The position numbers and the translations under genes are program-made. Below the pieces are notes generated by a model. It saw nothing but the letters and a program-made list of their open reading frames with translations. It was not told the origin of the DNA and searched no databases. Of a DNA stretch of 64,000 nucleotides, positions 30,070 through 45,145 are shown in pieces. This DNA comes from a virus. Numbering within the stretch: the first letter of the stretch is position 1; each line of letters opens with the position of its first letter. The stretch spans positions 31,417 to 95,416 of IMG/VR virus record IMGVR_UViG_3300010885_033832, one strand, 5' to 3'.

Positions 30070-30134
30070 TGTTTCCCTCTCGTGAGAGTTGGGAACGGTG
30101 TGACCCTCTCGCGAGAGCCACACCGTTCGATGGA

Positions 30135-30422
30135 CTAGGGGAGGCGAACCGAAGTCACCGAAGCGACATTGGTGAACTCGCCTTTGGATACCGCTTCCGC
30201 GATAGCAGGGTACGCCGAGAGAATGGATTTGGTGTCCGTTGTCTTGCGTTCGGTGACGGTTACGCGAGCGATTGTCTGCCCTTTGTATTCCACCGTTCCC
30301 TCGCCGACCGCGCCGATGATGAGCGCGCGGAGCGTTTCACTCTGCTTGGTGAGTGTGTCGATTTCCGCCTTGAGAGCGCGGAACTCGGCGACCGCGTCAG
30401 CGACCTTTTTGGTTACGACCAT
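30135..30422 (-). CDS. Coiled-coil/beta protein resembling the C-terminal part of YqaJ-type exonucleases or Gam-like proteins; paralog of 43441-43734
   Basis: KAEIDTLTKQSETLRALII...YKGQTIA...DTKSILSAYPAI. Confidence 0.65.
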   Translation of the reverse strand: MVVTKKVADAVAEFRALKAEIDTLTKQSETLRALIIGAVGEGTVEYKGQTIARVTVTERKTTDTKSILSAYPAIAEAVSKGEFTNVASVTSVRLP

Positions 30423-30534
30423 TGTCGTGTCCTTTCGTTGGGAGAGGGCGTGTCCCTCTCGTGATTCCACTCTACGCGGCCACACCCGACAAACGCAAAC
30501 ACCCCCCACCTTTCGGTGGAGGGTGTTCGTGGCG

Positions 30535-30789
30535 TTAGCCGATGTAGCGAGCGTAAACGGTAACGCGCTTACTGCGGTTGGAGTTCTTGCGCGAAGTCGC
30601 TTCAAACGACCCAGCAGGGGTGAATCCAATCAAGATACCTCGCTTGATTGACACCACATAACTTGCTGGTGCGTTGTCGCTAACGACGGCCCATTCTCCT
30701 GGATTTGCTTTGAGGGCTTTAGCAATCGCCCCGTACTTACCTGTTTGCACAGCGCGCTTCGGCGGTGCTTCCCAGCGGATTTTTACCAC
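30535..30789 (-). CDS. Conserved actinophage small protein (NPGEWA...VYARYIG)
   Basis: AAAGGAGA SD; motif familiar from actinophage hypotheticals. Confidence 0.8.
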   Translation of the reverse strand: MVKIRWEAPPKRAVQTGKYGAIAKALKANPGEWAVVSDNAPASYVVSIKRGILIGFTPAGSFEATSRKNSNRSKRVTVYARYIG

Positions 30790-30897
30790 GTCTCTCCTTT
30801 GCGAGGGGCGTGTCCCCTCTCGGTTCTACTTTACGACCAGAGCGAACACAACGCAAACAACCCCCCCACCCGATAGGGCAGGGGGGCGCGGTTGGGG

Positions 30898-30990
30898 CTA
30901 GTACCCGAACACCCACTCACCTTTGTGTTCGCAGGTGAAGAGCGCACCGCACTCGTCGCACGGCACTAGCACAATCTCTTCGTTGTCCAT
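30898..30990 (-). CDS. Cassette microprotein, 30 aa (CDEC..C.H)
   Basis: AAAGGAGA SD; own promoter and terminator. Confidence 0.65.
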   Translation of the reverse strand: MDNEEIVLVPCDECGALFTCEHKGEWVFGY

Positions 30991-31100
30991 CGGTTCTCCT
31001 TTGTTGGCAGGGCGTGTTCCCCACATCTCCACCGTACGCGATCGTGGGGCGAACCGACAAACACCCCCCACCCTTTCGGGTGAGGGGCGTTCGGTTCAGG

Positions 31101-31589
31101 CTACCAACTTGCTCGGTAGGTGAAGTCACAATCGGCGAGTGACTTGTTGGCGAGTATCTGCGAGAGTTCGTCACGAGTGGTTTCCAAGTCCTTCCAGTAC
31201 CACTCGTCAATCTCGGTCGAACCGAAGAAGAAGCCAGCCTGTGGTGGCAGGTGTTCTTCCGCGATTGCCGTTCGGTTTGCTTCGCTCGCGCCGAGAATGA
31301 TGTCGCACAGGTTTCGCAACGCTTCCAAGCCGTCACGCGGTACGCCGATTTCTTGGCACTCGTCAAGCCCATCAGCGAAGTTGCTCACGAACCATTGGTG
31401 AATGGCGTTCGCTTTCCGCCAATACATTACCGTCACAGCGAGGGTCGCAGACGGCGAGTATTCGGGCAGTATCGCAGGGTCGAACCCTGCCGTTTCCAGC
31501 ACACTCGCAAACTGCTCGCGGTCTGCTTCGGGTCGGTGTTCCCAACCCGATAGGTACTTCTCGGCAGATAGATACATATCCAGTCCCAT
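31101..31589 (-). CDS. Conserved phage protein (MGLDMY...YWRKANAIHQWF family)
   Basis: Recognisable widespread phage motif; AAAGGA SD. Confidence 0.85.
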   Translation of the reverse strand: MGLDMYLSAEKYLSGWEHRPEADREQFASVLETAGFDPAILPEYSPSATLAVTVMYWRKANAIHQWFVSNFADGLDECQEIGVPRDGLEALRNLCDIILGASEANRTAIAEEHLPPQAGFFFGSTEIDEWYWKDLETTRDELSQILANKSLADCDFTYRASW

Positions 31590-31698
31590 TATGTTTCCTT
31601 TGCTTGGTGTGAACCGTGTTGCTCACATTTCCAAACTACGGCACCGGCGGCCACAACGCAAACAACCCCCCACCGTGAGGTGAGGGGTTGCTCGGCGG

Positions 31699-31905
31699 TC
31701 ACTCGTATTGAGCGTGGATTACATCCCAGCAGGGGAAGCAGTACGGCTCTCCGTTGTCGCGGTGAGTTTTCTTACCACAGGCATCACAGGGAACTTTCCC
31801 CTCTCCACCGTCATAGCACGAATAGCAGGTGTAACCGTCTTCTTCGAGAATGTCCTCGTCGAGTTGGTCGCAGGTACAGGTCGGGTTGTTCGGGTTCTTT
31901 TTCAT
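31699..31905 (-). CDS. Cys-rich zinc-finger protein, 68 aa
   Basis: Four Cys pairs; TGATG coupling. Confidence 0.7.
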   Translation of the reverse strand: MKKNPNNPTCTCDQLDEDILEEDGYTCYSCYDGGEGKVPCDACGKKTHRDNGEPYCFPCWDVIHAQYE

Positions 31906-32033
31906 CAGTTCCCCTCGCAATCGTGTCCGTAGGACAGTTCCTGCTCGTCAACCTCGTTGGTCGGGTCGAACACTCGCGAGCATTCGACACACTTGAGCAG
32001 AAGTCCTGCTCGCGTAATGGTGAGTTCCATCAT
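31905..32033 (-). CDS. Zinc-finger microprotein, 42 aa (CVEC...GHDCE)
   Basis: GAAAGGA SD. Confidence 0.7.
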   Translation of the reverse strand: MMELTITRAGLLLKCVECSRVFDPTNEVDEQELSYGHDCEGN

Positions 32034-32096
32034 CTCGGTTCCTTTCAGGGGCGGTTCCCCTCTACTTCCAATCTACGCGATCGGGGCGCAAACGCA

Positions 32097-32191
32097 AAGT
32101 ACCCCCCGAGCGAAAGGGATAACTCTCGGGGGGCGTTTCTTTGTGTGTGGCGTTACCGTCAAGGGGTAAACACGATTCCCTGACAACCACT
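32097..32191 (-). ncRNA. Candidate ~95-nt sRNA filling a gene-less cassette
   Basis: TGnTAGCCT -10 at 32198-32203; no SD or ORF; hairpin with G.U pairs and loop AAUCGUGUUUAC; terminator 32100-32134. Confidence 0.6.
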
Positions 32192-32275
32192 CCGTCTAGG
32201 CTACCACACCGTGACGCGCGCAAAATACCAAAACAACGAACCCCCCTACCGAAGTAGAGGGGTTCGCGGTGACCG

Positions 32276-32590
32276 TCAGACGGTGAGGTTGCTTGCTTGG
32301 ATTTCAGCGAGCGAGCGCGGTTCCCAGTAGAGGTCGCGTTCGACCATCATTCCCATCGGACCGACCACGCCTGAGAGTTCCGAGAGCGAGAAGTATCCCA
32401 ACTCCATCTCGAAGCCGTTGACCAGACCGAAGAACTGGTCTTCGCCATCGAACTCGGTTGCGTACCAAGTCCAGTTCGCCCAGGGGGTGAAGTACTTGAC
32501 CGTAGCCATCGTTTCCTCAAGCGACTTGTTCTCGTTCGTGTAGAGCGGTGGAAGTGCTGCGCGCACCTCGTCGTTCATCAGTTCCATCAT
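32276..32590 (-). CDS. DUF2958-family protein
   Basis: LPPLY...VKYFTPWANWTWYATEFDGED.FFGLV.GFE.ELGYFSLSEL...GP.G..VERDLY. Confidence 0.88.
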   Translation of the reverse strand: MMELMNDEVRAALPPLYTNENKSLEETMATVKYFTPWANWTWYATEFDGEDQFFGLVNGFEMELGYFSLSELSGVVGPMGMMVERDLYWEPRSLAEIQASNLTV

Positions 32591-32692
32591 TTCCTTTCGG
32601 GGAGAGTGTTTCTCTCCACACTTCGACTCTACGCGCCGACCTCGCAAAACGCAAACAACCCCCCTACCGAAGTAGGGGGGCGTTCGGGGGGA

Positions 32693-32818
32693 CTAGTCCT
32701 CGTCGCGACAATCCCAGCAGAGCCAAGAACCGAGGTTGTCGAACGCGTCGATGGGGTCACCGTCGTCGTATGCGCCACATTCGTCGCACACTATTTCGGC
32801 ATAAGGACTGATAGCCAT
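32693..32818 (-). CDS. Acidic zinc-finger microprotein, 41 aa
   Basis: CDEC...CWDC; GAAAGGA SD. Confidence 0.75.
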   Translation of the reverse strand: MAISPYAEIVCDECGAYDDGDPIDAFDNLGSWLCWDCRDED

Positions 32819-33046
32819 TGTGTTCCTTTCGGGGGGAGCGTTTCTCCCCACGCTTCTACAATACGACTCCGGCATCCGTAACGCAACGAACCCCCACCCG
32901 AAGGTGGGGGACTCGTCAGCGGTCGCGGTACTGCCAGTAGGTGTATAGAGTCCCGACGATGAAAGCGATCACATTCGGGAGGACGATTAGAACGAATATC
33001 AGCACTGAAGAAAAAAGGGGGAGCAGTTTCCCACTCCCCCAACCGA

Positions 33047-33370
33047 CTAGGCGTTAGCAGTTTCGCGCACGTTGACAGGGAACCACTGGTCGGCAACGAC
33101 CTCAACGAACGTGCCAGACCCTTCATCGTGTTCCCAGTCGCGGACCGTGACCGAACCGATGACCGTGATGTGGTCACCTCGGCGAACCGTTGCGATGATG
33201 TCGTACGCCATTTGGTCGAACGCCGTGAACGTGTAGTAGTTCCACTGGTCACCGCGCTCGTCGCGCTTCGTGCTGATTCGGAATGACGTAATCGCCGTTC
33301 CCTCGCTGGTCACCACTTGGCGTGGTGTTGTGGCAACAAGTGCGTTGCCGAGAATAATCGTGTCCGACAT
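33047..33370 (-). CDS. ssb: Second, shorter SSB paralog (OB fold only)
   Basis: ATTPRQVVTSEG.AITSFRI...NYYTFTAFD.MA...GDHITVIGSVTVRDW. Confidence 0.85.
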   Translation of the reverse strand: MSDTIILGNALVATTPRQVVTSEGTAITSFRISTKRDERGDQWNYYTFTAFDQMAYDIIATVRRGDHITVIGSVTVRDWEHDEGSGTFVEVVADQWFPVNVRETANA

Positions 33371-33456
33371 TCTGTCCTTTCCTGTGGCAGGCGTTTCCTC
33401 CCACACTTTGACACTACGCGAAAAAGGGGAGAGGCGCGAGCCTCCCCCCTCCGACA

Positions 33457-33579
33457 CTACTTGTCGAATCGCCAATCCTCGTCTGTGTCGTAGACGGCTT
33501 CCTCGGTTTCGTCCTCTGGGTCGTCTGGCGGAGTGTAGTACGCCCGCTCCGCGCGACCCTGGTCGCTGAAATATCCCAT
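33457..33579 (-). CDS. Highly acidic microprotein, 40 aa (MGYFSDQG...DEDWRFDK)
   Basis: GAAAGGA SD; cassette architecture. Confidence 0.65.
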   Translation of the reverse strand: MGYFSDQGRAERAYYTPPDDPEDETEEAVYDTDEDWRFDK

Positions 33580-33683
33580 TTCATTTTCCTTTCGGGGAGG
33601 GATTTCCTCCACACCTCAACCGTACACCCGACCCCGGACACGAAACAACCTCCCCCACCCGAGGGTGAGGGATGCTGTCGGGA

Positions 33684-34115
33684 TTACTCCCAGATGTTTC
33701 CGTCTGCTCCGTATTCCTCCCAAAGTACTTGGGCTTGAGCAATCGCTTCGTCGAGTTCGTGGAAGACCTCGCTAAACGATTCGTCTCCGTCACGGAGCGA
33801 GACAACCTCGAACCACGAATTGTTGATCCAATCGAAGTATTCCGCACCCTTGGCTTCCCATTCGGCAAGGTCGGCGTCCGTCTTGATACCGAATGACTCA
33901 AGGTCGTCCGTGTAGCGCAACACCTCGTAGTCCGAGAGTAGAGCCTTGCGAGCGTGAATCCGCATCTCTCCGTTGCGATAGACGCGGAACCGAGGTGTCG
34001 TGAAGTCGGCCCACACCAATTCCCAATCGTGAGTCCAAGTGTGGAAAGCCGAGTCCTGTCGAGCCGAGTCCGGCTCCAGAGGGAGGCTCACGCCTCCCTC
34101 CTTCGCCTGGCTCAT
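33684..34115 (-). CDS. Acidic Trp-rich hypothetical protein
   Basis: 143 aa; ATGA coupling. Confidence 0.8.
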   Translation of the reverse strand: MSQAKEGGVSLPLEPDSARQDSAFHTWTHDWELVWADFTTPRFRVYRNGEMRIHARKALLSDYEVLRYTDDLESFGIKTDADLAEWEAKGAEYFDWINNSWFEVVSLRDGDESFSEVFHELDEAIAQAQVLWEEYGADGNIWE

Positions 34116-34522
34116 TCGGATTCCTCGATGTCGCGGAGGTAGCCGACCTTGAACATCGCGCCCATCGGCTCGTCGTGCGAGTATCGGGTGCAGGTCAGGT
34201 TGCCCGACTCAGGGTCGTACTCGAAGTCAAGGCGGTACTGCCCATTGATTGCGAGCGTGTCAACGATGGTGCCGACCTTACAGATGGCGTGTCCCGAAAC
34301 TCGGTCCCAATTCATCGCCTCGCTCCAGATGACGATGTCCTCGGTGTTGGTGATTCCGTGACGACTCGTCCATTCGGGGAGAAAGTTCTCGCTGTAGTCC
34401 TCTTGGTTGTCGTCCCAGCACCCGTGACAATCATCGCTCGGTGTGGATTTGTCGGTCACTTCGTCGTACACCTCACAGGTACACTCGGTCGTGACGACGG
34501 CTTTCATAATTGTGTTGGTCAT
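34112..34522 (-). CDS. Acidic hypothetical protein (RYSHDEPMG)
   Basis: 136 aa; GAAAGGA SD. Confidence 0.8.
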   Translation of the reverse strand: MTNTIMKAVVTTECTCEVYDEVTDKSTPSDDCHGCWDDNQEDYSENFLPEWTSRHGITNTEDIVIWSEAMNWDRVSGHAICKVGTIVDTLAINGQYRLDFEYDPESGNLTCTRYSHDEPMGAMFKVGYLRDIEESE

Positions 34523-34548
34523 AACTTTCCTTTCCGCAGGGAATCTCC

Positions 34549-34824
34549 CTACACCTCAACACTACGCTTCGACCTAACTGTGGTCAAGTACCCCTCCCAC
34601 TCGTTCGTCAGGTGCCCAGCGGAGATGAGTATGTCCCCAACCGTGAGTCCGAGTCCCTTGGCGAGTAGCGCGAGGTAGTCACTCGACACCTCTTTCTTTC
34701 CGTGCTCGACCTCAGAGATGTAGGCGTTCGATACTCCCGAGGCTCGGGCGAGCTCGAGTCCGGTCATACCGAGATCGTGTCGGCGTGCGTAGATCGTGTA
34801 CCCAATGGCAGCGCGTGATTTCAT
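34549..34824 (-). CDS. XRE-family HTH regulator, ClgR-like
   Basis: ELARASGVSNAYISEVEHGKKEVSSDYL resembles ClgR YLSEVERGxKExSSE. Confidence 0.85.
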   Translation of the reverse strand: MKSRAAIGYTIYARRHDLGMTGLELARASGVSNAYISEVEHGKKEVSSDYLALLAKGLGLTVGDILISAGHLTNEWEGYLTTVRSKRSVEV

Positions 34825-34882
34825 GTCGTTCCTTTCGTGAACGGAGCGAAGCGCACCCCCGAAAGGGTGCGCTCCGTCTTGG

Positions 34883-35209
34883 TCAGTCTTCCTCGTCCTC
34901 GTCAAAGCCCTGAGGAATGAGGTCGCAGAACCCATCGTTCGGGTTCTCGTGGTTGGTGTAGACAGCGTTCACGAACCGAAGGCCGCACGACTCCTCGTAC
35001 CACTCCTTCACCTTTTCCAGCATGGCGTATGAGTCCATGTCGCTCGCCGAGATGAGAGGGTCGTAGCCGTACTCCGCCATTTGCTTCATCTGCTCCTCGT
35101 CCATCAAGATATAAATCTTGTGGCAGGTGTCGAACGCGATGCCACTAGCCTCCGAGAGTGCCGACTCAACAGCACCCCAGCCAGTCTGACCTTTGAGTTT
35201 CAGTTTCAT
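34883..35209 (-). CDS. Conserved phage protein (IAFDTCHKIY...SCGLRF)
   Basis: 108 aa; GAAAGG SD. Confidence 0.8.
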   Translation of the reverse strand: MKLKLKGQTGWGAVESALSEASGIAFDTCHKIYILMDEEQMKQMAEYGYDPLISASDMDSYAMLEKVKEWYEESCGLRFVNAVYTNHENPNDGFCDLIPQGFDEDEED

Positions 35210-35308
35210 TATGTGCCTTTCCGTGGCAGACCATCTGCCCACAACATCACTCTACGCCGACAGCGAAACCAACGCAAGTAGGGGGTCACCGAAGTGACCC
35301 CCCATTGC

Positions 35309-35629
35309 CTAGCGATTGGTGCGTGACCGAACGAACGCGTCAGCGTGTTGAGCGAACTGCGAACCGAGGTCCGAGAACGAGCGGTCAAGACCCGACCCCG
35401 TAGATTCGGTGTCAATGAACGCGAGGAGCGTGACACGAGCAAGTGCTTGGTGCAACTCGTCGTAGTACTCGTACCAGTCGTTCGCTACTCCGTCACTCCA
35501 AGCGAGGAGGTATTGCGACCGACCCGTTCCCGTGTCCTTCTCAACGAACGAGATCGTGACCTGCGTTCCGATGAACAACTCGGACAGGTCAATCCTGCGA
35601 GCGGTGACTACTGTGTCGAAGTCCGACAT
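35309..35629 (-). CDS. Cassette gene, 106 aa
   Basis: GAAAGGA SD. Confidence 0.8.
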   Translation of the reverse strand: MSDFDTVVTARRIDLSELFIGTQVTISFVEKDTGTGRSQYLLAWSDGVANDWYEYYDELHQALARVTLLAFIDTESTGSGLDRSFSDLGSQFAQHADAFVRSRTNR

Positions 35630-35721
35630 AGTGATCCTTTCCGTAGGGAGCGTTTCCCCCCACACCTCAACGATACGCAAAAAAGGAGGAGAGGTCAACG
35701 ACCCCTCCTCCTCTCTTGCGG

Positions 35722-36165
35722 TTAGACCGAAGCGTTCTCGGTCACCGCCATTGCTTCCTGCCAGATACACAGGTTGGTTTCCAGACGGTCACCGAACACG
35801 CGAACCCAGTCCGCGAGGTCAACCGTTTCCTCGGTCACGAATGTCTGGAGCATATTGACGTGGAGGTCAACGGGGTGAGCGTACGAGAACCCGTTGCTTG
35901 ACCAGACGGGGACGGTCACGATTCGACTGTCCTCGTCACTCCGCCAACCGACTCCCTCGGTTCCGATGATGGCGACCCGGGGCTTCCTCCACGAGTCCGT
36001 GTCCTTGAGCGTGACGAAGACCAGCGGTTCGACCTCGCACTTCTCAAGCCCATCGAACTTGCCGTAGGTCAGTTCGAGGATTTTGTGGATGTGCTTGGTC
36101 AACGCCTCGCTGTCCACCTTGTGGGCAATGCAGCCTTTCCTGCGGGATTCATACCTGTCGTTCAT
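35722..36165 (-). CDS. Cassette gene, 147 aa
   Basis: GAAAGGAACACA-ATG. Confidence 0.8.
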   Translation of the reverse strand: MNDRYESRRKGCIAHKVDSEALTKHIHKILELTYGKFDGLEKCEVEPLVFVTLKDTDSWRKPRVAIIGTEGVGWRSDEDSRIVTVPVWSSNGFSYAHPVDLHVNMLQTFVTEETVDLADWVRVFGDRLETNLCIWQEAMAVTENASV

Positions 36166-36250
36166 TGTGTTCCTTTCGGTGGCCGACCCTCGGCCACATT
36201 CCCAAACTACGCGAGAAAGGGGAGAGGTGCAAGCACCCCTCCCCAATCGG

Positions 36251-36745
36251 TCACACGAAGTCGCTGACCGTGTCGCGTTCGCGAGAGACCTTGTAGTCCT
36301 CGTCCGAGTAGAAGTCTTTCGACTGTACCCACTCGTCACGCGCGGTTGACTCTCCGTACTGCTCAACCAACTCCGAAGCGTCAATCTCGTGGTCGTAGGA
36401 AACACCGTCAATCTCAAACTCAACATTGACGTAGCCCATTTCAGAGACCAGTTCGTCCCACATTTCCGAGATGTAATCGGAAGCGAGAATCGGACGAAGC
36501 GTTCCGTACTTCATCATCACGCCGACCTCGTTCTCCCACTCACCGACCTTGTAGTTCTCGAACAACTCCTCGTCTGTGTCGTAGTAGAGGGCGTGTCCGT
36601 CCTGAAGCGCGTTGGCCGCGACCAAGAATCGCGCCCACTTCTGCTCCGTGGTTTCCTCCTCCAACGGAACGCCATTGACACTCACGGCAGTTGCGTTGTC
36701 GAAGCGGTGTTCTTGACCGTCTGCGGTCGAGACAATAACCAGCAT
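36251..36745 (-). CDS. Very acidic cassette protein, 164 aa
   Basis: GAAAGGA SD; D/E-rich. Confidence 0.82.
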   Translation of the reverse strand: MLVIVSTADGQEHRFDNATAVSVNGVPLEEETTEQKWARFLVAANALQDGHALYYDTDEELFENYKVGEWENEVGVMMKYGTLRPILASDYISEMWDELVSEMGYVNVEFEIDGVSYDHEIDASELVEQYGESTARDEWVQSKDFYSDEDYKVSRERDTVSDFV

Positions 36746-36839
36746 TGCTTCCTTTCCGTGGCAGAACCGTTCTGCTCACATTCCCAAACTACGACAAAAG
36801 GGAGGAGGTCGCAATGACCCCCTCCCCTCGTGTCGCTTC

Positions 36840-37166
36840 TTACGCGAAGACCCGACCGGCAATCCCCAGTGCTTCGACCACACGGCTCACGGCGAAGAGC
36901 GAGTCTCCCCCGATGTGCCATTCGTAGAGTTCGTCCATTTCTGGCGCACCGTCTTCGTATCGCTTCCAGTCGTACAGCGTTACTCGAGTACCGTCCTCGA
37001 ACAGCAAGTCCCACTCGGTCGTAACCTTGCTTCCCGAGTCGTTCCCTAGAGAGATGGTTGGTGATCCAAACACCGTCTCGATGTGTTCACGAGTTGTCTC
37101 GATGTACCCTTGCAGACTCGTTCCGTTTGCACCCGAGTCGTTCTCGGATAGTGTCATAAATTTCAC
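36840..37166 (-). CDS. Conserved phage protein (TSLQGYI...LYDWK...EWHIGG)
   Basis: Recognisable phage motif; GAAAGGA SD. Confidence 0.8.
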   Translation of the reverse strand: MKFMTLSENDSGANGTSLQGYIETTREHIETVFGSPTISLGNDSGSKVTTEWDLLFEDGTRVTLYDWKRYEDGAPEMDELYEWHIGGDSLFAVSRVVEALGIAGRVFA

Positions 37167-37220
37167 TGCTTGTTGTCCTTTCGGTTGGTGGTGAGGGGAG
37201 GCCGCAACCTCCCCTCGCCG

Positions 37221-37457
37221 TTACTCGTTTCGTTCGCGAATGAGCGTGAACTCAAACTCGTCCGTGTCCTTGTCGAACGCCCGTTGGAACTCGGCTTCGT
37301 CTTGGAAGTAGAACCAAATCATATTGTCGAAACTCTCGTCCTCCACCATTTTCTCGTAGAGGTCGGGGTCGTTCAGTATGACCACTTGCGCTTCTGTATC
37401 TCCTGGCACGACTTCATCTTTCCAGATGTAGTCAACCCACGTTACTCGTTCAGCCAT
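37221..37457 (-). CDS. Acidic cassette protein, 78 aa
   Basis: AAAGGAAACACA-ATG. Confidence 0.78.
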   Translation of the reverse strand: MAERVTWVDYIWKDEVVPGDTEAQVVILNDPDLYEKMVEDESFDNMIWFYFQDEAEFQRAFDKDTDEFEFTLIRERNE

Positions 37458-37533
37458 TGTGTTTCCTTTCGTTGTGGCAATCCAAGTCAACCACGAAAGG
37501 GGGGAGAGGTCAACGACCCCTCCCCCCTGACCG

Positions 37534-37938
37534 CTAGTAACTAGCGTGTGGAACTACCTCACCGAGATACTTGGCAACATCATAGATGTCCTCAAGCGAG
37601 ATGTGCTTGGACTCACCCTTGTTGTTGTACGCGCTGGCGAACCCTTGGAAGTATCGGTGCTTTTCCGAACCGACTTCCATAATGATTGCTACCCAATCAT
37701 CCGCGAGGTGCTTGATGAACAAGTCCTCCCAGATGATGACGGTGTCCTCGTCTGTCTCCTCGTTGTAGGTCGTGGAGGGCAGACCACCCTCGTCTGTGTC
37801 GAGGAATCCGAACAGCACTTGTCCGTCTTGCTCCTGCGAAATCATCTCGACAGGGTAGTTCATAATGTCCTCGCGGAATGCTTCAGGGTCTTTGACCGCG
37901 AAGTAGTTGGTACGGACCTTGCCGTAGTAGTTCGCCAT
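37534..37938 (-). CDS. Conserved hypothetical protein (MANYY...RTNYFAVKD...EVGSEK.RY)
   Basis: 134 aa; TAATG coupling. Confidence 0.82.
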   Translation of the reverse strand: MANYYGKVRTNYFAVKDPEAFREDIMNYPVEMISQEQDGQVLFGFLDTDEGGLPSTTYNEETDEDTVIIWEDLFIKHLADDWVAIIMEVGSEKHRYFQGFASAYNNKGESKHISLEDIYDVAKYLGEVVPHASY

Positions 37939-38108
37939 TACTCGCTCACCTGCTCGACAATGTTTTCCATTGTGAACTCGCCACCCTGAACAAAGAAGTC
38001 ATCCGAAATCATCTCGTCAAACATCTTTTCCGCTTCCTCGATACTGGCCGCTTCGACCGTGGCTTCGAGGTTCTTGATGAGTGTGGCGTATGCCGTGTAC
38101 TTTTTCAT
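37938..38108 (-). CDS. Small protein with VEAxSxEEA (DpnD/PcfM-like) motif
   Basis: 56 aa; GAAAGGA SD. Confidence 0.72.
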   Translation of the reverse strand: MKKYTAYATLIKNLEATVEAASIEEAEKMFDEMISDDFFVQGGEFTMENIVEQVSE

Positions 38109-38199
38109 TCTGTTCCTTTCCGATCGCGTGACCATCACCCGACCTGTTTCCAAACTACGGCAAAGAGGGAGGAGACGATAGTCTCCCCCCTCCTGTCCG

Positions 38200-38832
38200 T
38201 TACTTCGTGGCGAGTTCGATTGACTTGGGGCAATCGGCGTACCAGCATTCGGGGTCAGTCTCGACCTCGCAGTAGCACTCGCGGTCACGCTTCTGGTAGT
38301 CGGCGTGGCTGTTGGGGATGTCGTACTCCTCGTCCACGATTACCTCACCGTCCTTGAGCGTGAGTTCTCCACCCCAGCCCTGCTCCTCCTCGTACCACCA
38401 CGACATTTCGAGGTGCGGATACTGCTCGGCAAGGGCAGCGACCACGCCACGCGGATAATCCCACGGAGTCTGGAATGTGATTCGGATTTGGTTGTCCTCG
38501 TCCTCGAACTCGATGTCTCCGTCACCAGCGTCCCACTTACAACCCCAGTTGTCGGAGTTCCACGAGTACCAGTTGGTGTCGGTGTTCCCGACCTGCTCGC
38601 CGTTTACAACGCCCCTGCGACCAAAGTAATCGTCCAACTTGTCGGCTGGCGGAGCAATGATGTTCCAGAACGAGAAGCCACCCTCGTTCAGTTTGATTTC
38701 GCCTGTCGGCTCGAAGCCGTCATAGACCATTTCAGGTCGGGGCATTTCCATCTCGCGGAGGAACGATTGGAGTTCCATTTTGTCTCCGCTGGGCGCGGTG
38801 ACGGTCACGCTGTTGTAGACCCAGTTAGGCAT
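38200..38832 (-). CDS. YubB/DUF1281 ferredoxin-like-domain protein
   Basis: MPNWVYN...WYSWNSDNWGCKWD...FQTPWDYP...WYEEEQG. Confidence 0.82.
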   Translation of the reverse strand: MPNWVYNSVTVTAPSGDKMELQSFLREMEMPRPEMVYDGFEPTGEIKLNEGGFSFWNIIAPPADKLDDYFGRRGVVNGEQVGNTDTNWYSWNSDNWGCKWDAGDGDIEFEDEDNQIRITFQTPWDYPRGVVAALAEQYPHLEMSWWYEEEQGWGGELTLKDGEVIVDEEYDIPNSHADYQKRDRECYCEVETDPECWYADCPKSIELATK

Positions 38833-38918
38833 ACTGCTTCCTTTCATCGGGTAGCCAAGTGGCTACATTACAACAATAAACGAAACCCCCCTCCGAGTCA
38901 AGGGAGGGGGGTCGCGTT

Positions 38919-39209
38919 TTATCTGATGGGTTGTATTCGGTAAGCGACCTGTTCGCTCATCTTGGCAGCGAGGAACATCTTGTCGGTTACTTCGGGGAGA
39001 GGCTCGTCTCCCCACCAGTCCTGCTTGTCCACATCAAAGTAGTCGAGCAGGTAGGAGACCATTTCCTCGGAGTAGTCGGAGGTGTATAGCAGGCACTCCT
39101 TGGTGTCGGTCTTGGCGGTCAGGGGCGATTGGAAGAATCCACGCGCAATCCGATTCACATCAGATTCCCAGATTAGTTCCGCTTCGAGAGCGGTGGTTTC
39201 ACTCCACAT
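38919..39209 (-). CDS. Hypothetical protein, 96 aa
   Basis: GGAGG SD; overlaps upstream gene. Confidence 0.72.
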   Translation of the reverse strand: MWSETTALEAELIWESDVNRIARGFFQSPLTAKTDTKECLLYTSDYSEEMVSYLLDYFDVDKQDWWGDEPLPEVTDKMFLAAKMSEQVAYRIQPIR

Positions 39210-39345
39210 CAGTGACCTCCAAGAGCATTGTCTCGGTTTCGATTTCTTTGTACTCCCCCTGACCAATGAGGTTCTGCGCTTCTTCGAGCGTCTCGGCGAT
39301 GACCTCGACTCGTTCCCCTGTGAGGAATGTGTATGTCTTTGGCAT
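39199..39345 (-). CDS. Small protein with VIAETLEEA motif, 48 aa
   Basis: GAAAGGA SD; same motif as 37938-38108. Confidence 0.7.
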   Translation of the reverse strand: MPKTYTFLTGERVEVIAETLEEAQNLIGQGEYKEIETETMLLEVTDVE

Positions 39346-39434
39346 AATGTCCTTTCCGTGAGGAGACCGTCTCCCCACGCTTCCAAACTACACAACAAGA
39401 GGGAGGAGCACAATGCTCCCCCCTCCGTGTGTTG

Positions 39435-39815
39435 TTACTGTGGGCAGACCACCTTGACATTGGCGATGTGCTGGGCGAGAGCAGGTCGCTCGGAGTCCGA
39501 GGCTTCCTCAATCAAAGCCCAGTCGGCTTCATCCCAGTTACTGGTGTCCACCAGTTTGATTCCCTTGGCTACTCCGTACGAACCATCCTCGGCGAAGTAG
39601 GTCGTGGTAGCGACCGGCTGGGTCAGAGTGGCGAGTCGCTGGTTGATGATGTAGTCGAGTTGTTCTTCCTCGTCTCCATCAGGCCGCACCCATTCCTGCT
39701 CCTCGTCATCGAACCACGCCCGTTCGTGAAACTTGGCCATCAACGATTCATCGTCAAGCCAGAAGCCGTCATCGCTCGGATCGTAGTAGACCACGAAGTG
39801 GATTTGCTTGGTCAT
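39435..39815 (-). CDS. Acidic cassette protein, 126 aa
   Basis: GAAAGGA SD. Confidence 0.8.
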   Translation of the reverse strand: MTKQIHFVVYYDPSDDGFWLDDESLMAKFHERAWFDDEEQEWVRPDGDEEEQLDYIINQRLATLTQPVATTTYFAEDGSYGVAKGIKLVDTSNWDEADWALIEEASDSERPALAQHIANVKVVCPQ

Positions 39816-39905
39816 TCTGTTCCTTTCGGTTGGTGTGCCGGGTGGCACGATTCCATCGTACGCCGAAAAGGGAGGAGGCGTTAGCCTCCCCCCTCTCGGT
39901 GTGGG

Positions 39906-40607
39906 TTACTCCCGACCCAACATCTCGATAATGTCGGCAACGGAGGTAATCAGGTTCGCACCACGCTTGATGAGTTCGTGAGTGCCAGCGGAAGTTCCCG
40001 AAGTAATCGGGCCAGGAACTGCTCCGACCTTTGCTCGACGCTTTTTGAGCGCGTGTTTCGCGACGTTGATGGAGCCACTGCGGTAGCCAGCCTCGATAAC
40101 CACGACAGCAACCGAGAGGTTCGCCATCAACTTGCTCCGCTTCAAGAATCGTTCGCGAGTCGGAGCCGTTTTCGGAGGCGACTCCGAGAGCAGGAGTCCC
40201 GTCATCGCGACTCGGCGGAACAGTTCCGAGTGACCCGATGGGTACGCGGAGTCGAGTCCCCCAACAGCGACAACGATGGTGTTCCCACCACACGCCAGAG
40301 TGGCGCGAGTAGCCATTCCGTCAATGCCGTACGCTCCGCCAGTGATGGTGGTGTAGCCACGCGAGACGAGGCCAGCCGCGAAGTCCATCGCGACGTGTTC
40401 GCCGTAGCCCGTTGAGGCACGTGCGCCCGTGAGGGTCACGGCGTTGTTGAGGTCGGAGAGCAGGTCGAGGTTCCCCAAGTACCAGAGGTCGGGAGCCTTG
40501 TCACCAAGTCGCCTCTTGAGAAGCAGAGGGTATCGCTCGTCGGTGACGGGCAGGAACCCGATGACTTCGTGTGGGACTACGACGTTCTCTTGTTCGGTAT
40601 CTATCAT
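39906..40607 (-). CDS. dprA: DprA/Smf DNA-processing protein (Rossmann core only)
   Basis: GARASTGYG...TGGAYGID...GGLDSAYPSGH...SESPP...EAGYRSGS...VGAVPGPITS. Confidence 0.95.
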   Translation of the reverse strand: MIDTEQENVVVPHEVIGFLPVTDERYPLLLKRRLGDKAPDLWYLGNLDLLSDLNNAVTLTGARASTGYGEHVAMDFAAGLVSRGYTTITGGAYGIDGMATRATLACGGNTIVVAVGGLDSAYPSGHSELFRRVAMTGLLLSESPPKTAPTRERFLKRSKLMANLSVAVVVIEAGYRSGSINVAKHALKKRRAKVGAVPGPITSGTSAGTHELIKRGANLITSVADIIEMLGRE

Positions 40608-40692
40608 TGTGTTTCCTTTCGGTTGAGTGACGGGTGTCACAATTCCACATTACACAAGAAAAGAGGGGAGCGCAAGGCTCCCCTCCCTCTCG

Positions 40693-41415
40693 TTACTTCT
40701 TGCTGGCGGAGAATACGATGTCCGCCTTGTTGAATACGCACAGACCACAGCGTACGCAGGCACTACCCTCGTTGGAGATTAGGGGCAATGCTCCCTTGTT
40801 CTCTGGACACTTGGCACCGGGTCGGCCAGTAATCTGCTTGATTACCGATTGACCCTGCTCGAAGTTGTCCGCGAGATACGCGAGACGGATCCCATACTCC
40901 TCGCGGAGCGCGATCGCGGTGTCGAGGTTCGCGCTGTCCGCCGAGAAGTACAGCGACAGATTCGGAATGTCGCGGAGGATAATCGCGCTGTCCTCGGTTC
41001 GGGTGTAGACCCAAAACTGAACATCGGGATGATTCTCGACCACGCGCTTCCACGCGTAGGTGTAGGCGTCGTTAAAGAAATCGCCGTCCCAGTGGATACG
41101 GAACAGTTTGTCCGCGCCTCGCTTGTCGCTGTCCTTCTCAAAGTCCGTCACCATGCCGTCAAGCAGGGCGTACATCGTGTCGAGGTCAGCGTTGCGGAGC
41201 AGGTTCCAGTTGTGAACCAGCACCTCGCGTACTCCCTTGTAAATCTTTTCGAGCTTCCCGGCGTAGCAGATAATCTCGCAGACCGAGGTTGCTCCCGGGC
41301 AAGAGAATGGCTTCCCCGAGGGCAGACCGAATGTGTTGGCGATTGCTGGCGTCTTACCCGAGGGCATGACAGCGTTCGTCACCTTGCGGTCTTTAGAGCG
41401 TTTGAGCGTGTCCAT
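40693..41415 (-). CDS. GP88-family protein (mycobacteriophage gp88-like, Cys motif)
   Basis: FGLPSGKPFSCPGATSVCEIICYAG...FRIHWDGDFF...FWVYTR...CVRCGLC. Confidence 0.82.
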   Translation of the reverse strand: MDTLKRSKDRKVTNAVMPSGKTPAIANTFGLPSGKPFSCPGATSVCEIICYAGKLEKIYKGVREVLVHNWNLLRNADLDTMYALLDGMVTDFEKDSDKRGADKLFRIHWDGDFFNDAYTYAWKRVVENHPDVQFWVYTRTEDSAIILRDIPNLSLYFSADSANLDTAIALREEYGIRLAYLADNFEQGQSVIKQITGRPGAKCPENKGALPLISNEGSACVRCGLCVFNKADIVFSASKK

Positions 41416-41503
41416 AATGTCTCCTTTCGTTGGACAGTCTCAACGATACGCGGTGTAATAAAAAAGCGCAAGGAGGGGGTCTCCCCCCTCCCTGCGTTGT
41501 CGG

Positions 41504-42094
41504 TCAGTAGTGGAAGTCCACTGGCACGAGGAACCATTGGTCGGCACTCTCGCTGTCCTCCATGTCCTTGAGGAGGTAGCGCATTTCCGTGACACCGTTG
41601 GTGATGTCATAGAAGTAGGTGTCGGGCAACCAATACTCGGCAGCCATGCGCGAGAGATACCCGAACTGGTACATCGTTGAGAGCGGGTCGTACGGGAACT
41701 CGGTCGAATCACTCAGCGAGTACGCGAGGTACTCCTCAACCCGTTCCTCGAACGATTTCCCGTCCTGCTCGTTGCGGAGTTTGATTTCCTCGAGACGGCG
41801 ACGCATTTCGGTAGCGCGTGATTCGAGGCACTCGCGGATTGTCTTGGAGAACTTCTTGGGGTCTTCCGAGAAAGCGATCACATTCATCGTGTCGAACACA
41901 TAAGCGTCAGTGTTCTGGAAGAACCGACCACCACCGACAACGAACCAGTCGTACCAGTCCGCGTAAGGCCGCTCGTCTCCCGAGAGAGTGTTGTTGACCT
42001 CATGGGCCGCGCTCTCTTTGGCCTCGTCCATGTCAATGCCGTTCTCGCCAATGGTCTCGTTGCTCTTGACGGCAACCCAATGTAAAGTGTGCAT
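41504..42094 (-). CDS. Conserved phage protein (WYDWFVVGGGRF...VDFH)
   Basis: 196 aa; GAAAGGA SD. Confidence 0.8.
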   Translation of the reverse strand: MHTLHWVAVKSNETIGENGIDMDEAKESAAHEVNNTLSGDERPYADWYDWFVVGGGRFFQNTDAYVFDTMNVIAFSEDPKKFSKTIRECLESRATEMRRRLEEIKLRNEQDGKSFEERVEEYLAYSLSDSTEFPYDPLSTMYQFGYLSRMAAEYWLPDTYFYDITNGVTEMRYLLKDMEDSESADQWFLVPVDFHY

Positions 42095-42186
42095 GCTGTC
42101 TATCCTTTCCGTGGTCGGAGTTTCCGGCCACACTCTGACATTACACAAAGAAAGAGGAGGGCGCAAGCCCCCCTCCTCCTGTGTTG

Positions 42187-42609
42187 CTACGCCTCGAAGA
42201 CTACTCGACCCTCGTAGATTCCGTGCGGTGTCCACTTCCAAATCTCGCCGTCCTCGCCACGCCAGATGATGTAGCACGACACATCCACGAGGTCGCGAAT
42301 GGCGTTGATGAACTGTGACTCGTCACCAATCTTGCTGTCGTATCCGTGGACATTGAGACCGCCGTCCTCCTGAATCATGCAGTCGAACCCGAGGAGTTCG
42401 AGAACCTCCTGTGCCGAGGACACAGTCTGGTCGTAGTCGGTGGGCATCCACGAGAACCACTTCTCGTTCTCCTCACCACTTGACCATCGGCCTCCACCCT
42501 TGATTGCGTTCGGGTCGTGGTTGAGTGCCTTGAACCGCTCGAGAGCCTTGTCAAGGTTGTGTGCCGGAATCACAAAGTTCGATTCCTGAATGTTGATGTA
42601 GTAACCCAT
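42187..42609 (-). CDS. Conserved phage protein (MGY...WRGEDGEIW)
   Basis: 140 aa; GAAAGGA SD. Confidence 0.82.
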   Translation of the reverse strand: MGYYINIQESNFVIPAHNLDKALERFKALNHDPNAIKGGGRWSSGEENEKWFSWMPTDYDQTVSSAQEVLELLGFDCMIQEDGGLNVHGYDSKIGDESQFINAIRDLVDVSCYIIWRGEDGEIWKWTPHGIYEGRVVFEA

Positions 42610-42692
42610 CGGTTCCTTTCCGTGAGCAGACCTTGCTCACACTTTGAGTTTAGGACGGAAGCGAGGGGAGTGCAATGCACCCCCCTCCTCCG

Positions 42693-43070
42693 TTACTTGT
42701 GGACGCTCTCGTTCCCACAGCAGGAGCAGTAGGACTCGTGTTCGACATGGTCACAGCAGTCGTGCTTGTCCCATGTCCACTCCCCACCACCGATTGCGTA
42801 GACCCGAGTACCGTTCTTGTTCAGGTATCCCTGATACTCGATCCGTGCTTCGCTCGGGTCGCGGTCAGGCTCAACGACCCAGACTGTATCGGTCTGGGCG
42901 TTGTACCCAAACTGGTTGTAGTACTCACCAGCCATCAGCATTTGGAATACATCGTTGACCACTTGGGTCAGCGTGAACTCGGGGATGACCCATCCGTTCC
43001 ACTTCCGTGAAGCGAATGAGACACACTCCGAGGCTGGCAGGTGTTCGTTGACCACGGCGTAGTTGGTCAT
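42693..43070 (-). CDS. Hypothetical protein (WNGWVIPEFT...YAIGGGEWTW)
   Basis: 125 aa; TAATG coupling. Confidence 0.8.
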   Translation of the reverse strand: MTNYAVVNEHLPASECVSFASRKWNGWVIPEFTLTQVVNDVFQMLMAGEYYNQFGYNAQTDTVWVVEPDRDPSEARIEYQGYLNKNGTRVYAIGGGEWTWDKHDCCDHVEHESYCSCCGNESVHK

Positions 43071-43333
43071 TAGTACTGACCATCCACTTCGCTTGCCACC
43101 GCGATGAACGCGGGGTCGCTCGCCTTGCGGTCTGCCACGTACTGCTGGAACTCGAAGCGAACATCGAGTGCCTTGTTGATTTGGATGAACAGGTCGCGGA
43201 GTGCGTCTGCTCGCCCCGTGTGGTAGGCCGAGTCCTCGAGGTCACCAGTCTGCATGCTGTCACGCTCTGCCATCTGCCACTCCTCCTCGAGGTTCATGAG
43301 AATCCCCGGAACGGTATTCATTTGTGTCGACAT
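43070..43333 (-). CDS. Hypothetical protein, 87 aa
   Basis: GAAAGGAG SD. Confidence 0.78.
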   Translation of the reverse strand: MSTQMNTVPGILMNLEEEWQMAERDSMQTGDLEDSAYHTGRADALRDLFIQINKALDVRFEFQQYVADRKASDPAFIAVASEVDGQY

Positions 43334-43440
43334 CTCTGTCTCCTTTCGCGCCAGACTCTCTGGCTACCTCGAGCCTACGCTCATTACACAACAAATGCAA
43401 ACACCCCCCGCCGAAGCGAGGGGTGTCTGTTGGCGAAAGC

Positions 43441-43734
43441 CTACTGCTTGGCAGTGAGGATTTCGAGGCGGAGGGAGTGCGAGACCTTCTGAACCTTCTC
43501 GAAGATTGCAGGCCACTTCGCCTTGAGGAGGTCGCTGTCAACCAGAGTGCGCGGAACGCTCTTGGTCTTGGCAACTGCCTTGCCACGGTAGGTGGCTACC
43601 TCTGCCCCACCCATTGCATCGAGGATGCGAGTGCGGAGATCGGTGTCCTCCTTGTCGAGAGCGTTCTTCTGCTCCCGGACTTCAGCAAGTCGCTGAAGGT
43701 CGGCAACGATTGTGCCGGGTACGGATGTTTCCAT
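43441..43734 (-). CDS. Paralog of 30135-30422 (YqaJ C-terminal/Gam-like)
   Basis: EQKNALDKEDTDLRTRILDAMG...YRGKAVA...VDSDLLKAKWPAIF. Confidence 0.7.
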   Translation of the reverse strand: METSVPGTIVADLQRLAEVREQKNALDKEDTDLRTRILDAMGGAEVATYRGKAVAKTKSVPRTLVDSDLLKAKWPAIFEKVQKVSHSLRLEILTAKQ

Positions 43735-43828
43735 CGTGTCTATCCTTTCGTGACCCTACTTGGTTTCGGGTACAGTTCCACTGTACGCGAAACGACCCCC
43801 CCTCGCAAGTAGGGGGGGTCTGATTCGG

Positions 43829-44332
43829 CTAGAAGCCAGTGAGTTCGGCTTCGAGGTTCTCGATGTCGATGTTGAAGTGAGCGTCATTGATGTGCTCAAT
43901 CACATCTCCGAGGAGCGTGCGCTCGTTCTCTTGGAGTCCGTCTTTTTCCAACTGGAGGTTGACGTACCCGGCGAGGTCTTCGAGGTTCTGGTGTAGGTAC
44001 GAGATGGTCTCGAGAAACACAGTCGAGTGCTCGGGGTCAGGGAAGAACGTCTTGACGAGTTGCTCGACCTGAAGTCCGATTGCGAATCGCATGAGCGAGA
44101 TCGGGTTGTCGTACTCCGAGAAGTCGCGTTCCTCCATCTCCTCGTGCGTAACCACCGGGTATTCGAACTCGGTGTAGAGGGCGAACAGGTCATGGTTCGA
44201 CCAGTTGCGGAGTTCGTCCGCAATGAGTTGCAGCAGGAGGTTACCCTCGAAGGTCTGGCCAGCTTTTTCCTTGGCCTCCTTGCGCTTGATGACTGTGTCC
44301 ATCAGGGCGGAGGAGTGGTGCGTTCCTTGCAT
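43829..44332 (-). CDS. Acidic helical protein, 167 aa
   Basis: GAAAGGA SD. Confidence 0.78.
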   Translation of the reverse strand: MQGTHHSSALMDTVIKRKEAKEKAGQTFEGNLLLQLIADELRNWSNHDLFALYTEFEYPVVTHEEMEERDFSEYDNPISLMRFAIGLQVEQLVKTFFPDPEHSTVFLETISYLHQNLEDLAGYVNLQLEKDGLQENERTLLGDVIEHINDAHFNIDIENLEAELTGF

Positions 44333-44427
44333 AATGATTCCTTTCAGGTTGTAGGTGGATGTCACCCAATATCAATTTACAGAAAAGACCCCCCGAAGTC
44401 AAGCCGGGGGGCCCCTCTGTGTCAAGA

Positions 44428-44760
44428 CTATCCGTAGATGATGTCTCCGTAGACTGCGACCTGCAAAATTCCGCTCGAGGTGCAGAGGTCTTGGTCTTGC
44501 CAATCCCAACCACCCGAGCAGTGGCTGTAGTTCTTGTCGAGGCAGAACTGGTATGCCTTGAGCAAGTCCTCGATACCGAGTTCCTTGCGGACTTTCAATC
44601 CCTCGTTCTCAGGATCCTCGCCCGCGATTGTGAAGCGACCGAGTTTTTCCCAGGTGGCGTCTCCGTGATACTTGATGGTGACCCAGCAGGAGTCGAATTC
44701 CCATCCGCCTCCCATCGTCTCAGACCAGAAGTCCTCGTACTCGTCTTGTGTGATTTCCAT
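44428..44760 (-). CDS. Conserved phage protein (C-terminal ILQVAVYGDIIYG)
   Basis: 110 aa; widespread C-terminal motif. Confidence 0.8.
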   Translation of the reverse strand: MEITQDEYEDFWSETMGGGWEFDSCWVTIKYHGDATWEKLGRFTIAGEDPENEGLKVRKELGIEDLLKAYQFCLDKNYSHCSGGWDWQDQDLCTSSGILQVAVYGDIIYG

Positions 44761-45047
44761 TAGTTGTCCTCTCCGAACAGTCGCTGGCGTGCCGTCTTGG
44801 AACTGGCATCGCTGATGGGAACGTATGACCCGACAAAGCCGAATCCTCCGCCGTTGCCTTCCTCGTCCTTGGACAGGATAAAGAAAGTGTTGTCGTTGAA
44901 CAGGAACACGGGGGAGTGGTCGTAATCGCCCCACATGAAGTCCTCGCGTTCTTGAGCAGTGAGGTCGCGCACACCGATGATGGTTTTGTTCATCAGCGTT
45001 GCGAACTCGGTTTTGTAGAACTCGGTATAGCGTTCAGTGTCTGACAT
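44760..45047 (-). CDS. Conserved phage protein (SKDEEGNGGG motif)
   Basis: 95 aa; GAAAGGAAACACC-ATG; first cassette of the array. Confidence 0.8.
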   Translation of the reverse strand: MSDTERYTEFYKTEFATLMNKTIIGVRDLTAQEREDFMWGDYDHSPVFLFNDNTFFILSKDEEGNGGGFGFVGSYVPISDASSKTARQRLFGEDN

Positions 45048-45145
45048 GGTGTTTCCTTTCGAGGGCGTCTCCCTCCTATTACCAACATAAAGGAACCCCC
45101 TACCTGGTGTCAAGTAGGGGGTCCCCGTTGCGCGTCGTTCGGCTT

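Follow-up and report, generated by a model that had tools for sequence, protein, structure and literature searches.

How the end of one gene and the beginning of the next can be written into the same few bases is the question raised by a set of repeated intergenic elements in a 64,000-nucleotide (nt) stretch of viral DNA, here called the window (bases 31417-95416 of the 95.4-kb IMG/VR virus contig IMGVR_UViG_3300010885_033832, which is ~56% complete by estimate). Small genes follow one another on its minus strand, and in the ~95 bp from stop codon to start codon a G+C-rich hairpin and a promoter-like pair of -35 and -10 boxes overlap. With a probability of roughly 0.78 in our estimate, these elements are intrinsic terminators superimposed on host sigma-A-type promoters, one transcription unit per cassette. 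A first-pass annotation had proposed an element of ~45 bp that serves as terminator of one gene and promoter of the following one. This proposal is supported by the geometry of the modules, by the strand-specific stability of the hairpins as RNA, by selection and by recurrence in other phages, all read from DNA sequence.

The -35 box in the hairpin loop

The 125 nt upstream of 35 start codons preceded by GAAAGG were aligned on the TANNNT box situated 18-50 nt before the ATG. The minus strand has 46 copies of GAAAGG and the plus strand six, almost all of them at 5-9 nt from a following start codon. All terminator-promoter modules were located on the minus strand, where they precede the terminase gene in the reading direction, and each lies between a stop codon and the Shine-Dalgarno sequence and start codon of the following gene.

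Fourteen G+C-rich hairpins, aligned on TANNNT, share one register (the loop register), in which the strong stem ends 2-10 nt before the -10 box. Eleven of the hairpins have a TTG in or at the loop, and in these the 3' arm plus the T-rich tail form the spacer of 17 nt (once 18) between -35 and -10, as had been described in the first-pass annotation. The other three (gene starts 39815, 38108 and 33370) carry TAACGC, TATCGT and TCGCGC, matching the family consensus TTGCGY at four to five of six positions. The earlier count of about 14 loop modules holds when these degenerate boxes are included. All ten -35/-10 pairs quoted with it were recovered on the minus strand in their places, for example TTGACC-N17-TATCGT at 35698-35670, TTGACT-N17-TATTGT at 38901-38873 and TTGACT-N17-TAAATT at 44402-44374.

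The coincidence of TTG and loop is far beyond chance. With a TTG frequency of 0.0145 on the minus strand, the binomial probability of at least 11 in 14 is 4×10^-15 to 3×10^-13 (two or three allowed positions). A detector that took no account of genes (perfect stems of at least 8 pairs, TTG starting in the loop, TANNNT at most 14 nt from the stem) was run over the whole 95-kb contig and returned 12 sites on the minus (coding) strand versus none on the plus strand. After relaxation to stems of at least 7 pairs and TANNNT at any distance, spacers of 8-27 nt from loop TTG to TANNNT were tallied, and 11 of the 15 counts fell at exactly 17. The twelfth site of the stricter search (~63215-63248, minus strand; TTGCTC-N17-TAGTGT) has a weak 9-bp stem and lies antisense inside a ribonucleotide reductase gene (plus-strand open reading frame 59976-63338); it is probably due to chance and gives a feel for the false-positive rate.

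Spacer length hardly varied among the modules (standard deviation 0.29 nt) compared with the distance from TTG to loop centre (1.23 nt), and loops ranged from 3 to 8 nt. The TTG therefore tracks the -10 box, and with it the promoter frame, rather than the geometry of the loop. Five different 3' halves of the -35 hexamer were found (TGC, CGA, CAC, ACC and CGC), each paired to a complementary 5' flank that changes along with it, so that the promoter code and the hairpin code are both satisfied at once. The stability of CUUG tetraloops was considered as a cause of the TTG in the loop and rejected, given the range of loop sizes and the adherence of TTG to the -10 frame.

Two sub-types of loop-register hairpins were distinguished. 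Ten have a G/A-rich 5' arm (GGAGGGGGG...) and loops of 3-5 nt, while the other four (gene starts 45047, 44332, 43734 and 38832) have a C-rich 5' arm and loops of 4-8 nt with a full -35 hexamer in or at the loop. A MAFFT alignment separated the 14 modules along the same line, with loop centres offset by ~1 nt, and no single consensus structure was forced on them for pair counting. After many -10 boxes the sequence (A/G)(G/T)GTGG is conserved; it opens the hairpin of the 5' leader.

Hairpins as RNA

Each hairpin begins a few nt beyond a stop codon, with a T-rich stretch next to it on the 3' side, and its loop or 3' arm overlaps the -35 box and spacer. Free energies of -25 to -37 kcal/mol were calculated, with a mean z-score of -5.8 against shuffled sequences, and a scan for terminator-like sites gave 42 versus 18.6 expected. 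Stems of the loop register, which contain 0-4 G.U pairs each, have a mean of -29.1 kcal/mol as sense RNA versus -23.3 kcal/mol as antisense RNA, and 12 of the 14 are more stable as sense. The same trend was seen in the second group of modules described below (-33.5 versus -27.6 kcal/mol). By these signatures the hairpins are RNA-level, orientation-specific terminator candidates and not symmetric DNA structures or operators.

Read by eye, the G+C core of the stem ends 6-10 nt before the -10 box in 13 of the 14 modules, which places the predicted release of the transcript ~12-14 nt before the predicted start of the next one. When the last G-C pair was used to place the release point automatically, weak pairing at the stem base between the T-tail and A/G-rich sequence upstream distorted the result, and the numbers were not used.

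Tail and intermediate registers

A second architecture, which had been placed at 27-33 kb with the -35 box after the hairpin, is real, but its -35 does not simply follow the hairpin; it lies inside the T-rich tail. This tail register comprises 12 modules, mostly at 27.9-35.3 kb, in which the -35 (mostly TTGCGT) is situated within the tail TGTTTGCGTT, 16-18 nt from TANNNT. Since the box sits in the tail, these terminators overlap their promoters as well. TTG is present in 12 of 12 tail modules and the hairpin loops, free of TTG, mostly measure 4 nt (such as TTCG or GAAA), with the 10-nt loop of module 32033 as an exception. Taking loop and tail registers together, TTGNNN-N17(16-18)-TANNNT can be read in the sequence of 23 of 26 modules. 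One further module has an intermediate, third register. The coordinates are listed in Table 1.

Table 1. Predicted terminator-promoter modules of the gene array (window positions)
Register	Span	Strand	Hairpin or loop	-35 box	Spacer (nt)	-10 box	Gene start	Remark
Loop	45084-45126	-	hairpin from 45126	TTGACA 45113-45108	18	TATGTT 45089-45084	45047	
Loop	44374-44417	-	7-nt loop CTTGACT	TTGACT 44402-44397	17	TAAATT 44379-44374	44332	
Loop	43780-43820	-	loop ACTTGCG	TTGCGA 43808-43803	17	TACAGT 43785-43780	43734	
Tail	43372-43429	-	hairpin 43429-43398, loop TTCG	TTGCAT	17	TAGGCT 43377-43372	43333	isolated, within loop block
Loop	42647-42687	-		TTGCAC 42675-42670	17	TAAACT 42652-42647	42609	poor T-tail
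Loop	42138-42180	-	loop TTGC	TTGCGC 42166-42161	17	TAATGT 42143-42138	42094	
Intermediate (third)	41443-41496	-	hairpin 41496-41467	TTGCGC 41471-41466	17	TATCGT 41448-41443	41415	-35 is foot of 3' arm, then TTTTTT
Loop	40647-40689	-	loop CTTGC	TTGCGC 40675-40670	17	TAATGT 40652-40647	40607	gene DprA-like
Loop, degenerate -35	39855-39900	-		TAACGC		TACGAT 39860-39855	39815	TAGCGC in relative
Loop	39385-39426	-	3-nt loop, TTG	TTGTGC 39413-39408	17	TAGTTT 39390-39385	39345	
Loop	38873-38913	-	8-nt loop CTTGACTC	TTGACT 38901-38896	17	TATTGT 38878-38873	38832	
Loop, degenerate -35	38152-38197	-		TATCGT		TAGTTT 38157-38152	38108	
Loop	36786-36829	-	loop ATTGC	TTGCGA 36814-36809	17	TAGTTT 36791-36786	36745	
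Loop	36204-36244	-	loop CTTG	TTGCAC 36232-36227	17	TAGTTT 36209-36204	36165	
Loop	35670-35720	-	loop GTT	TTGACC 35698-35693	17	TATCGT 35675-35670	35629	
Loop, degenerate -35	33411-33460	-		TCGCGC		TAGTGT 33416-33411	33370	5/6 match to TTGCGC
Tail (11 modules)	27970-35300	-					35209, 33584, 32818, 32587, 32033, 31589, 30789, 30422, 29781, 28276, 27949	

Two defective modules were noted on the minus strand, at 37470-37530 and 37182-37215, both of which are kept in the relative discussed below. One has TTGACC in its hairpin loop, but TTGACT at the expected place of the -10 box. The other is a hairpin without T-tail or promoter, directly followed by a ribosome-binding site. The gene at 37166-36840 is therefore probably read from upstream.

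Conservation and possible cassette seams

One close relative was available, a 36-kb contig (3300027499_000013) with 88% identity overall and the same modules. Relatives at 71-88% identity were seen, and a scan of a single metagenome yielded this contig alone. Identity to this contig was 82% at codon position 3, compared with 95% in the -35 boxes, 94% in the -10 boxes, 94% in the spacers and 98.6% in the 5' arms of the loop-register hairpins. Within the -10 box, positions 1, 2 and 6 were conserved in 24 of 24 cases, with 75-92% for positions 3-5. Such a TANNNT pattern is to be expected of an actinobacterial housekeeping promoter. By this comparison the modules are under purifying selection with a TANNNT signature, as judged from conservation far above that of synonymous sites.

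Diverged strains were seen in freshwater metagenomes, for instance as a 26-kb contig of run X4. Contigs of such strains skip whole cassettes, with the junctions in the modules. The join 35252->35674 removes 421 nt, from one -10 box to the next with five ambiguous bases, and one gene is lost. Other joins were found at 36830->37232, 31687->31907 and 38917->39227. Of 20 block edges in the comparison with the relative contig, seven were found 6 nt or less from a module, compared with ~16% of the region taken up by the listed modules; the enrichment is no more than suggestive. The modules thus appear to be seams where related phages gain and lose early genes, as has been described for a class of phage elements treated below.

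Occurrence in other phages

The window phage encodes T4-type large-terminase domains. Its large terminase shares 67% identity with that of the freshwater 'Actinomycetia phage DSL-LC01' and ~58% with those of Microbacterium phages Cece, Big4, Zooman and Pumpernickel (~190 kb each), actinophages being the closest. From these terminase relatives and the presence of its DNA in freshwater metagenomes, it is concluded to be a large phage of freshwater actinobacteria. Its base composition is ~57% G+C. A Megablast search of GenBank phages with the array region gave no match, and no Rfam family was found in 26-46 kb of the window.

The small-gene array of Cece lies in a direct terminal repeat of ~18 kb (genes 1-45 equal genes 304-347; L025 1-17500, L028 31900-50000). 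Seven loop -35 sites were detected in this array, six with a spacer of 17 and one of 18. All are on the coding strand, and six of the seven occupy the gap from an annotated stop codon to the following start. The stem sequences have no relation to those of the window, for example CCCCCGA-TTGACT-TCGGGGG, followed by TTTTCTGTTG and then TATGCT. One or two loop -35 sites were present in the non-repeat part of Cece and two in Pumpernickel.

In DSL-LC01 (L013 24000-44000) and three related sequences (L015-L017, 1400-3800; 70% terminase identity), the cassette design with a promoter for each gene and the CGAAAGGA ribosome-binding site are kept, with promoters that are extended -10 boxes lacking a -35 (TCTAAAGWTGTTATAAT and CCTGTTATAAT) and hairpins that lie upstream and have no TTG in their loops. 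The detector gave zero coding-strand sites with spacers of 16-18 in these four, and one spacer-17 count on the opposite strand of L016. The -10 box of DSL-LC01 is flanked by a 7-bp inverted repeat, GATTCTA...TAGAATC. Gordonia phage Forza, which has operon-style overlapping genes, yielded one weak site with a spacer of 16 and a short stem on the small-gene strand, which is taken as chance. The architecture was not found in the more distant protein relatives, which are unrelated phages (L004-L011 and L018-L020).

The loop -35 geometry hence appears, from the sequences compared, to occur where a -35-dependent promoter must share a short intergenic gap with a terminator. On the evidence of the unrelated stems, it is a geometry that arose with independent sequences in the window phage and in the Microbacterium phages.

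Comparison with known composite elements

A dual function of this kind has experimental precedent in bacteria (bioRxiv 10.64898/2026.08.19.745784) and in T4-type phages (PMC2839356). In the latter, the promoter-early stem-loops (PeSLs; Arbiol et al. 2010, PMC2839356; Comeau et al. 2014, PMC4122927) are intergenic cassettes of a sigma-70-type promoter and a polyG/polyC stem-loop with G-T pairs. They flank small ORFans, are divided into five sub-classes by the position of the stem-loop, overlap with the -35 among them, and act as recombination seams; promoter and terminator activity have been demonstrated (PMC2839356, PMC4122927). The window modules resemble them in their place between upstream stop and downstream Shine-Dalgarno sequence and ATG, in the combination of a sigma-70-type -35/N17/-10 promoter with a G/C-rich stem-loop containing G-U (G-T) pairs, in the variable position of this stem-loop, including overlap with the -35, and in their clustering in an array of small ORFan genes with cassette insertions and deletions seamed in the elements.

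There are also differences. The PeSL phages are T4-like myoviruses of Gram-negative bacteria, whereas the window phage is an actinobacterial phage of ~57% G+C with -10 boxes of the actinobacterial TANNNT type. Upstream of the -35, where PeSLs have an AT-rich stretch, the window modules have the G+C-rich 5' arm. The commonest PeSL stem-loop lies between -35 and -10 or over the -10, in contrast to the window, where the -35 mainly lies in the loop or the U-tail. Because the AT-rich tract is missing and the terminase is closest to those of actinophages, the array is regarded as an analogue and not as a homologous member of the PeSLs.

Promoter-coupled terminators were recently described by Fletcher et al. 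(2026), who identified hundreds from RNA-end maps of Acinetobacter, E. coli and Bacillus by the criterion of a 3' end that precedes a start on the same strand by no more than 35 bp (mode ~10 bp) (bioRxiv 10.64898/2026.08.19.745784). Their T-tract abuts the -10 box and their -35 coincides with stem-loop DNA. Promoter and terminator are both affected by mutations in the T-tract or the stem-loop DNA, and termination becomes more efficient with the coupled promoter, an effect of proximity and not of supercoiling. Recycling of the polymerase is raised as a speculation, and neither a phage nor an actinobacterium is mentioned (bioRxiv 10.64898/2026.08.19.745784). The window modules likewise have a T-tract directly upstream of the -10 and a -35 on stem-loop DNA, lie between tandem genes, save intergenic space and have a predicted 3' end ~10-14 nt before the next start. 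In the chromosomes of Acinetobacter, E. coli, Bacillus and other bacteria, however, these elements are scattered, as opposed to a dense tandem array of at least 26.

Both published systems go further in experiment: mini-circles and promoter and terminator activity are on record for PeSLs, and end mapping and mutagenesis for promoter-coupled terminators, while the window modules are described at the level of sequence. By its sequence features, the array would belong with both types of element and is not a new mechanism.

A similar layout of genes is found in the SPO1 host-takeover module. This module, associated with Stewart et al. 1998, reportedly comprises numerous short early operons that lie in the terminal redundancy and have a promoter and a terminator each. 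The array shares with it the dense small early genes, strong ribosome-binding sites and individual host-sigma promoters and terminators, and the array of Cece shares the location in a terminal repeat. To our knowledge, a -35 superposed on a terminator loop is not a described feature of the SPO1 module.

Proposed function and alternatives

According to the proposed explanation, the minus strand from ~26.3 to 45.1 kb would be an early-gene array in which nearly every small gene is its own transcription unit. Each module would be ordered as a G+C-rich terminator hairpin after the stop codon, a T-rich tail, the promoter TTG(C/A)NN-N17-TANNNT, a short hairpin in the 5' leader, the ribosome-binding site GAAAGGA and ATG. 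In 11-14 modules the terminator would be pushed ~16 nt further into the promoter, so that its loop holds the TTG of the -35, its 3' arm and U-tract make up the 17 nt of spacer, with the end of the U-tract at the -10. Such double coding would work because the constraints of promoter and hairpin are complementary. The sequence-specific promoter contacts TTG and TA...T would be placed in the unpaired loop and past the end of the U-tract, the stems would occupy promoter positions with little sequence requirement (upstream of the -35 and in the spacer), and the weakly specified 3' half of the -35 hexamer would pair with a co-varying 5' flank.

By analogy with the known systems, the promoters are presumed to be used by host RNA polymerase with sigma-A, and upstream transcripts would end ~12-14 nt before the next start. 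The T-tract may help the promoter, and a promoter-bound polymerase may help to stop read-through and thereby insulate the cassettes. The repeated modules could serve as recombination seams for cassette gain and loss.

Several points weigh against this interpretation. The U-tracts are interrupted, with a mean of 3.8 T among the 9 nt that follow the folded stem, a count that already includes part of the T-tail, and module 42609 has a poor T-tail; interrupted U-tracts are usual in actinobacteria. Because many modules share G-rich arms (GGAGGGGGG), some of their similarity may reflect duplication and not independent selection, and with a single close relative contig compared, the orthologous covariation is thin. 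The only metatranscriptome with related sequence (X24) gave ~20 short contigs with 90-97% identity, of which all those listed map within array genes, and no contig spans a module; parts not covered carry no weight, and the contigs are compatible with expression as short units. Finally, a phage-encoded sigma factor or RNA polymerase may lie elsewhere in the genome. No sigma-70 region 2 or region 4 gene was found in the 95 kb available, which speaks for use of the host factor but is weak evidence because the contig is only ~56% complete.

A bolder version of the superimposed terminator-promoter, which we hold to be unlikely, makes overlap depth a tuning knob. The three registers would set the strength of mutual interference between polymerases that terminate and polymerases that start, the loop and tail halves of the array (5' versus 3') would be two kinetic classes of early genes, and termination in the loop register would need occupancy of the promoter, the released core being reused on the spot. 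If this were true, the array would be a self-insulating relay.

It is quite improbable that the overlap exists for the sake of an RNA polymerase hand-off, in which the core, having released the upstream RNA, does not leave the DNA but starts again from the promoter beneath it, the array firing as a relay. The predicted release point does fall inside the next promoter, post-termination sliding and re-initiation are described in single-molecule studies (PMC6978380, PMC10372574), and the idea is likewise a speculation in the bacterial work (bioRxiv 10.64898/2026.08.19.745784). Re-initiation at the termination point, raised in the first-pass annotation, may occur, but sigma must rebind in any case, and the effect measured in bacteria was on termination efficiency, not on promoter output (bioRxiv 10.64898/2026.08.19.745784). 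The coexistence of three overlap registers argues against a strict geometric requirement and suggests that one special geometry is not needed.

The placement of TTG in the loop might also be neutral, one ancestral TTG-loop module having been copied, with hairpins that only stabilise the 3' ends of mRNA or mark processing sites and do not terminate. Paralogy is suggested by the shared G-rich arms and by -10 flanks such as GTAGTTTGG, and the imperfect U-tracts would suit hairpins of that type. Copying accounts poorly, however, for a spacer that stays at 17 while loops vary from 3 to 8 nt and five hexamer 3' halves are each matched by a complementary 5' flank, for two stem sub-types with a G-rich or a C-rich 5' arm, for the same geometry on unrelated stems in Cece and Pumpernickel, and for module conservation far above that of synonymous sites; a neutral by-product is accordingly a distinctly poor candidate.

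Least credible of all is that the inverted repeats act as DNA, as cruciforms or as operator palindromes over the -35 switched by supercoiling or by a phage or host repressor: palindromes over the -35 do hold classic operator positions, the motif GGAGGGGGG is common to several arms and a LexA site coincides with a terminator palindrome in E. coli (bioRxiv 10.64898/2026.08.19.745784), but the stems differ between modules and in Cece with no common half-site, every repeat comes after a stop codon and before a T-tract, and the cruciform-dependent control suggested in the first-pass annotation is disfavoured because stems relying on G.U pairs (0-4 each) are ~6 kcal/mol weaker on the opposite strand and because coupling in the bacterial system is independent of supercoiling (bioRxiv 10.64898/2026.08.19.745784).

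Read as superimposed terminators and promoters, the modules extend composite elements, hitherto described in T4-like phages and, as of 2026, in bacterial chromosomes, to phages of actinobacteria. With at least 26 cassettes and three overlap registers in one array, they form a natural series of how two codes can share bases: the loop for the -35, the stems for promoter positions that are neutral in sequence, and the U-tract up to the -10. Because the geometry is present in the cultured phages Cece and Pumpernickel, the coupling model and the recycling idea become testable in a tractable actinobacterial system. Modules of this compactness could also serve as insulated expression parts for high-G+C hosts.

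Other features of the window

The array genes as called encode proteins of ~40 to 240 amino acids, mostly of unknown function; nine of ten further cassette proteins had no match in Pfam. Another open reading frame on this strand (2-13246) has at least 4415 codons and runs off the start of the window. Within a GP88-family gene, at 41047-41103, metagenome depth jumps to ~400 in run X11 versus ~50 nearby (value of the covering 634-nt bin). The loose ends of numerous contigs cluster at ~41047-41109, with up to five per place in one run, and this short stretch is apparently shared with many other genomes.

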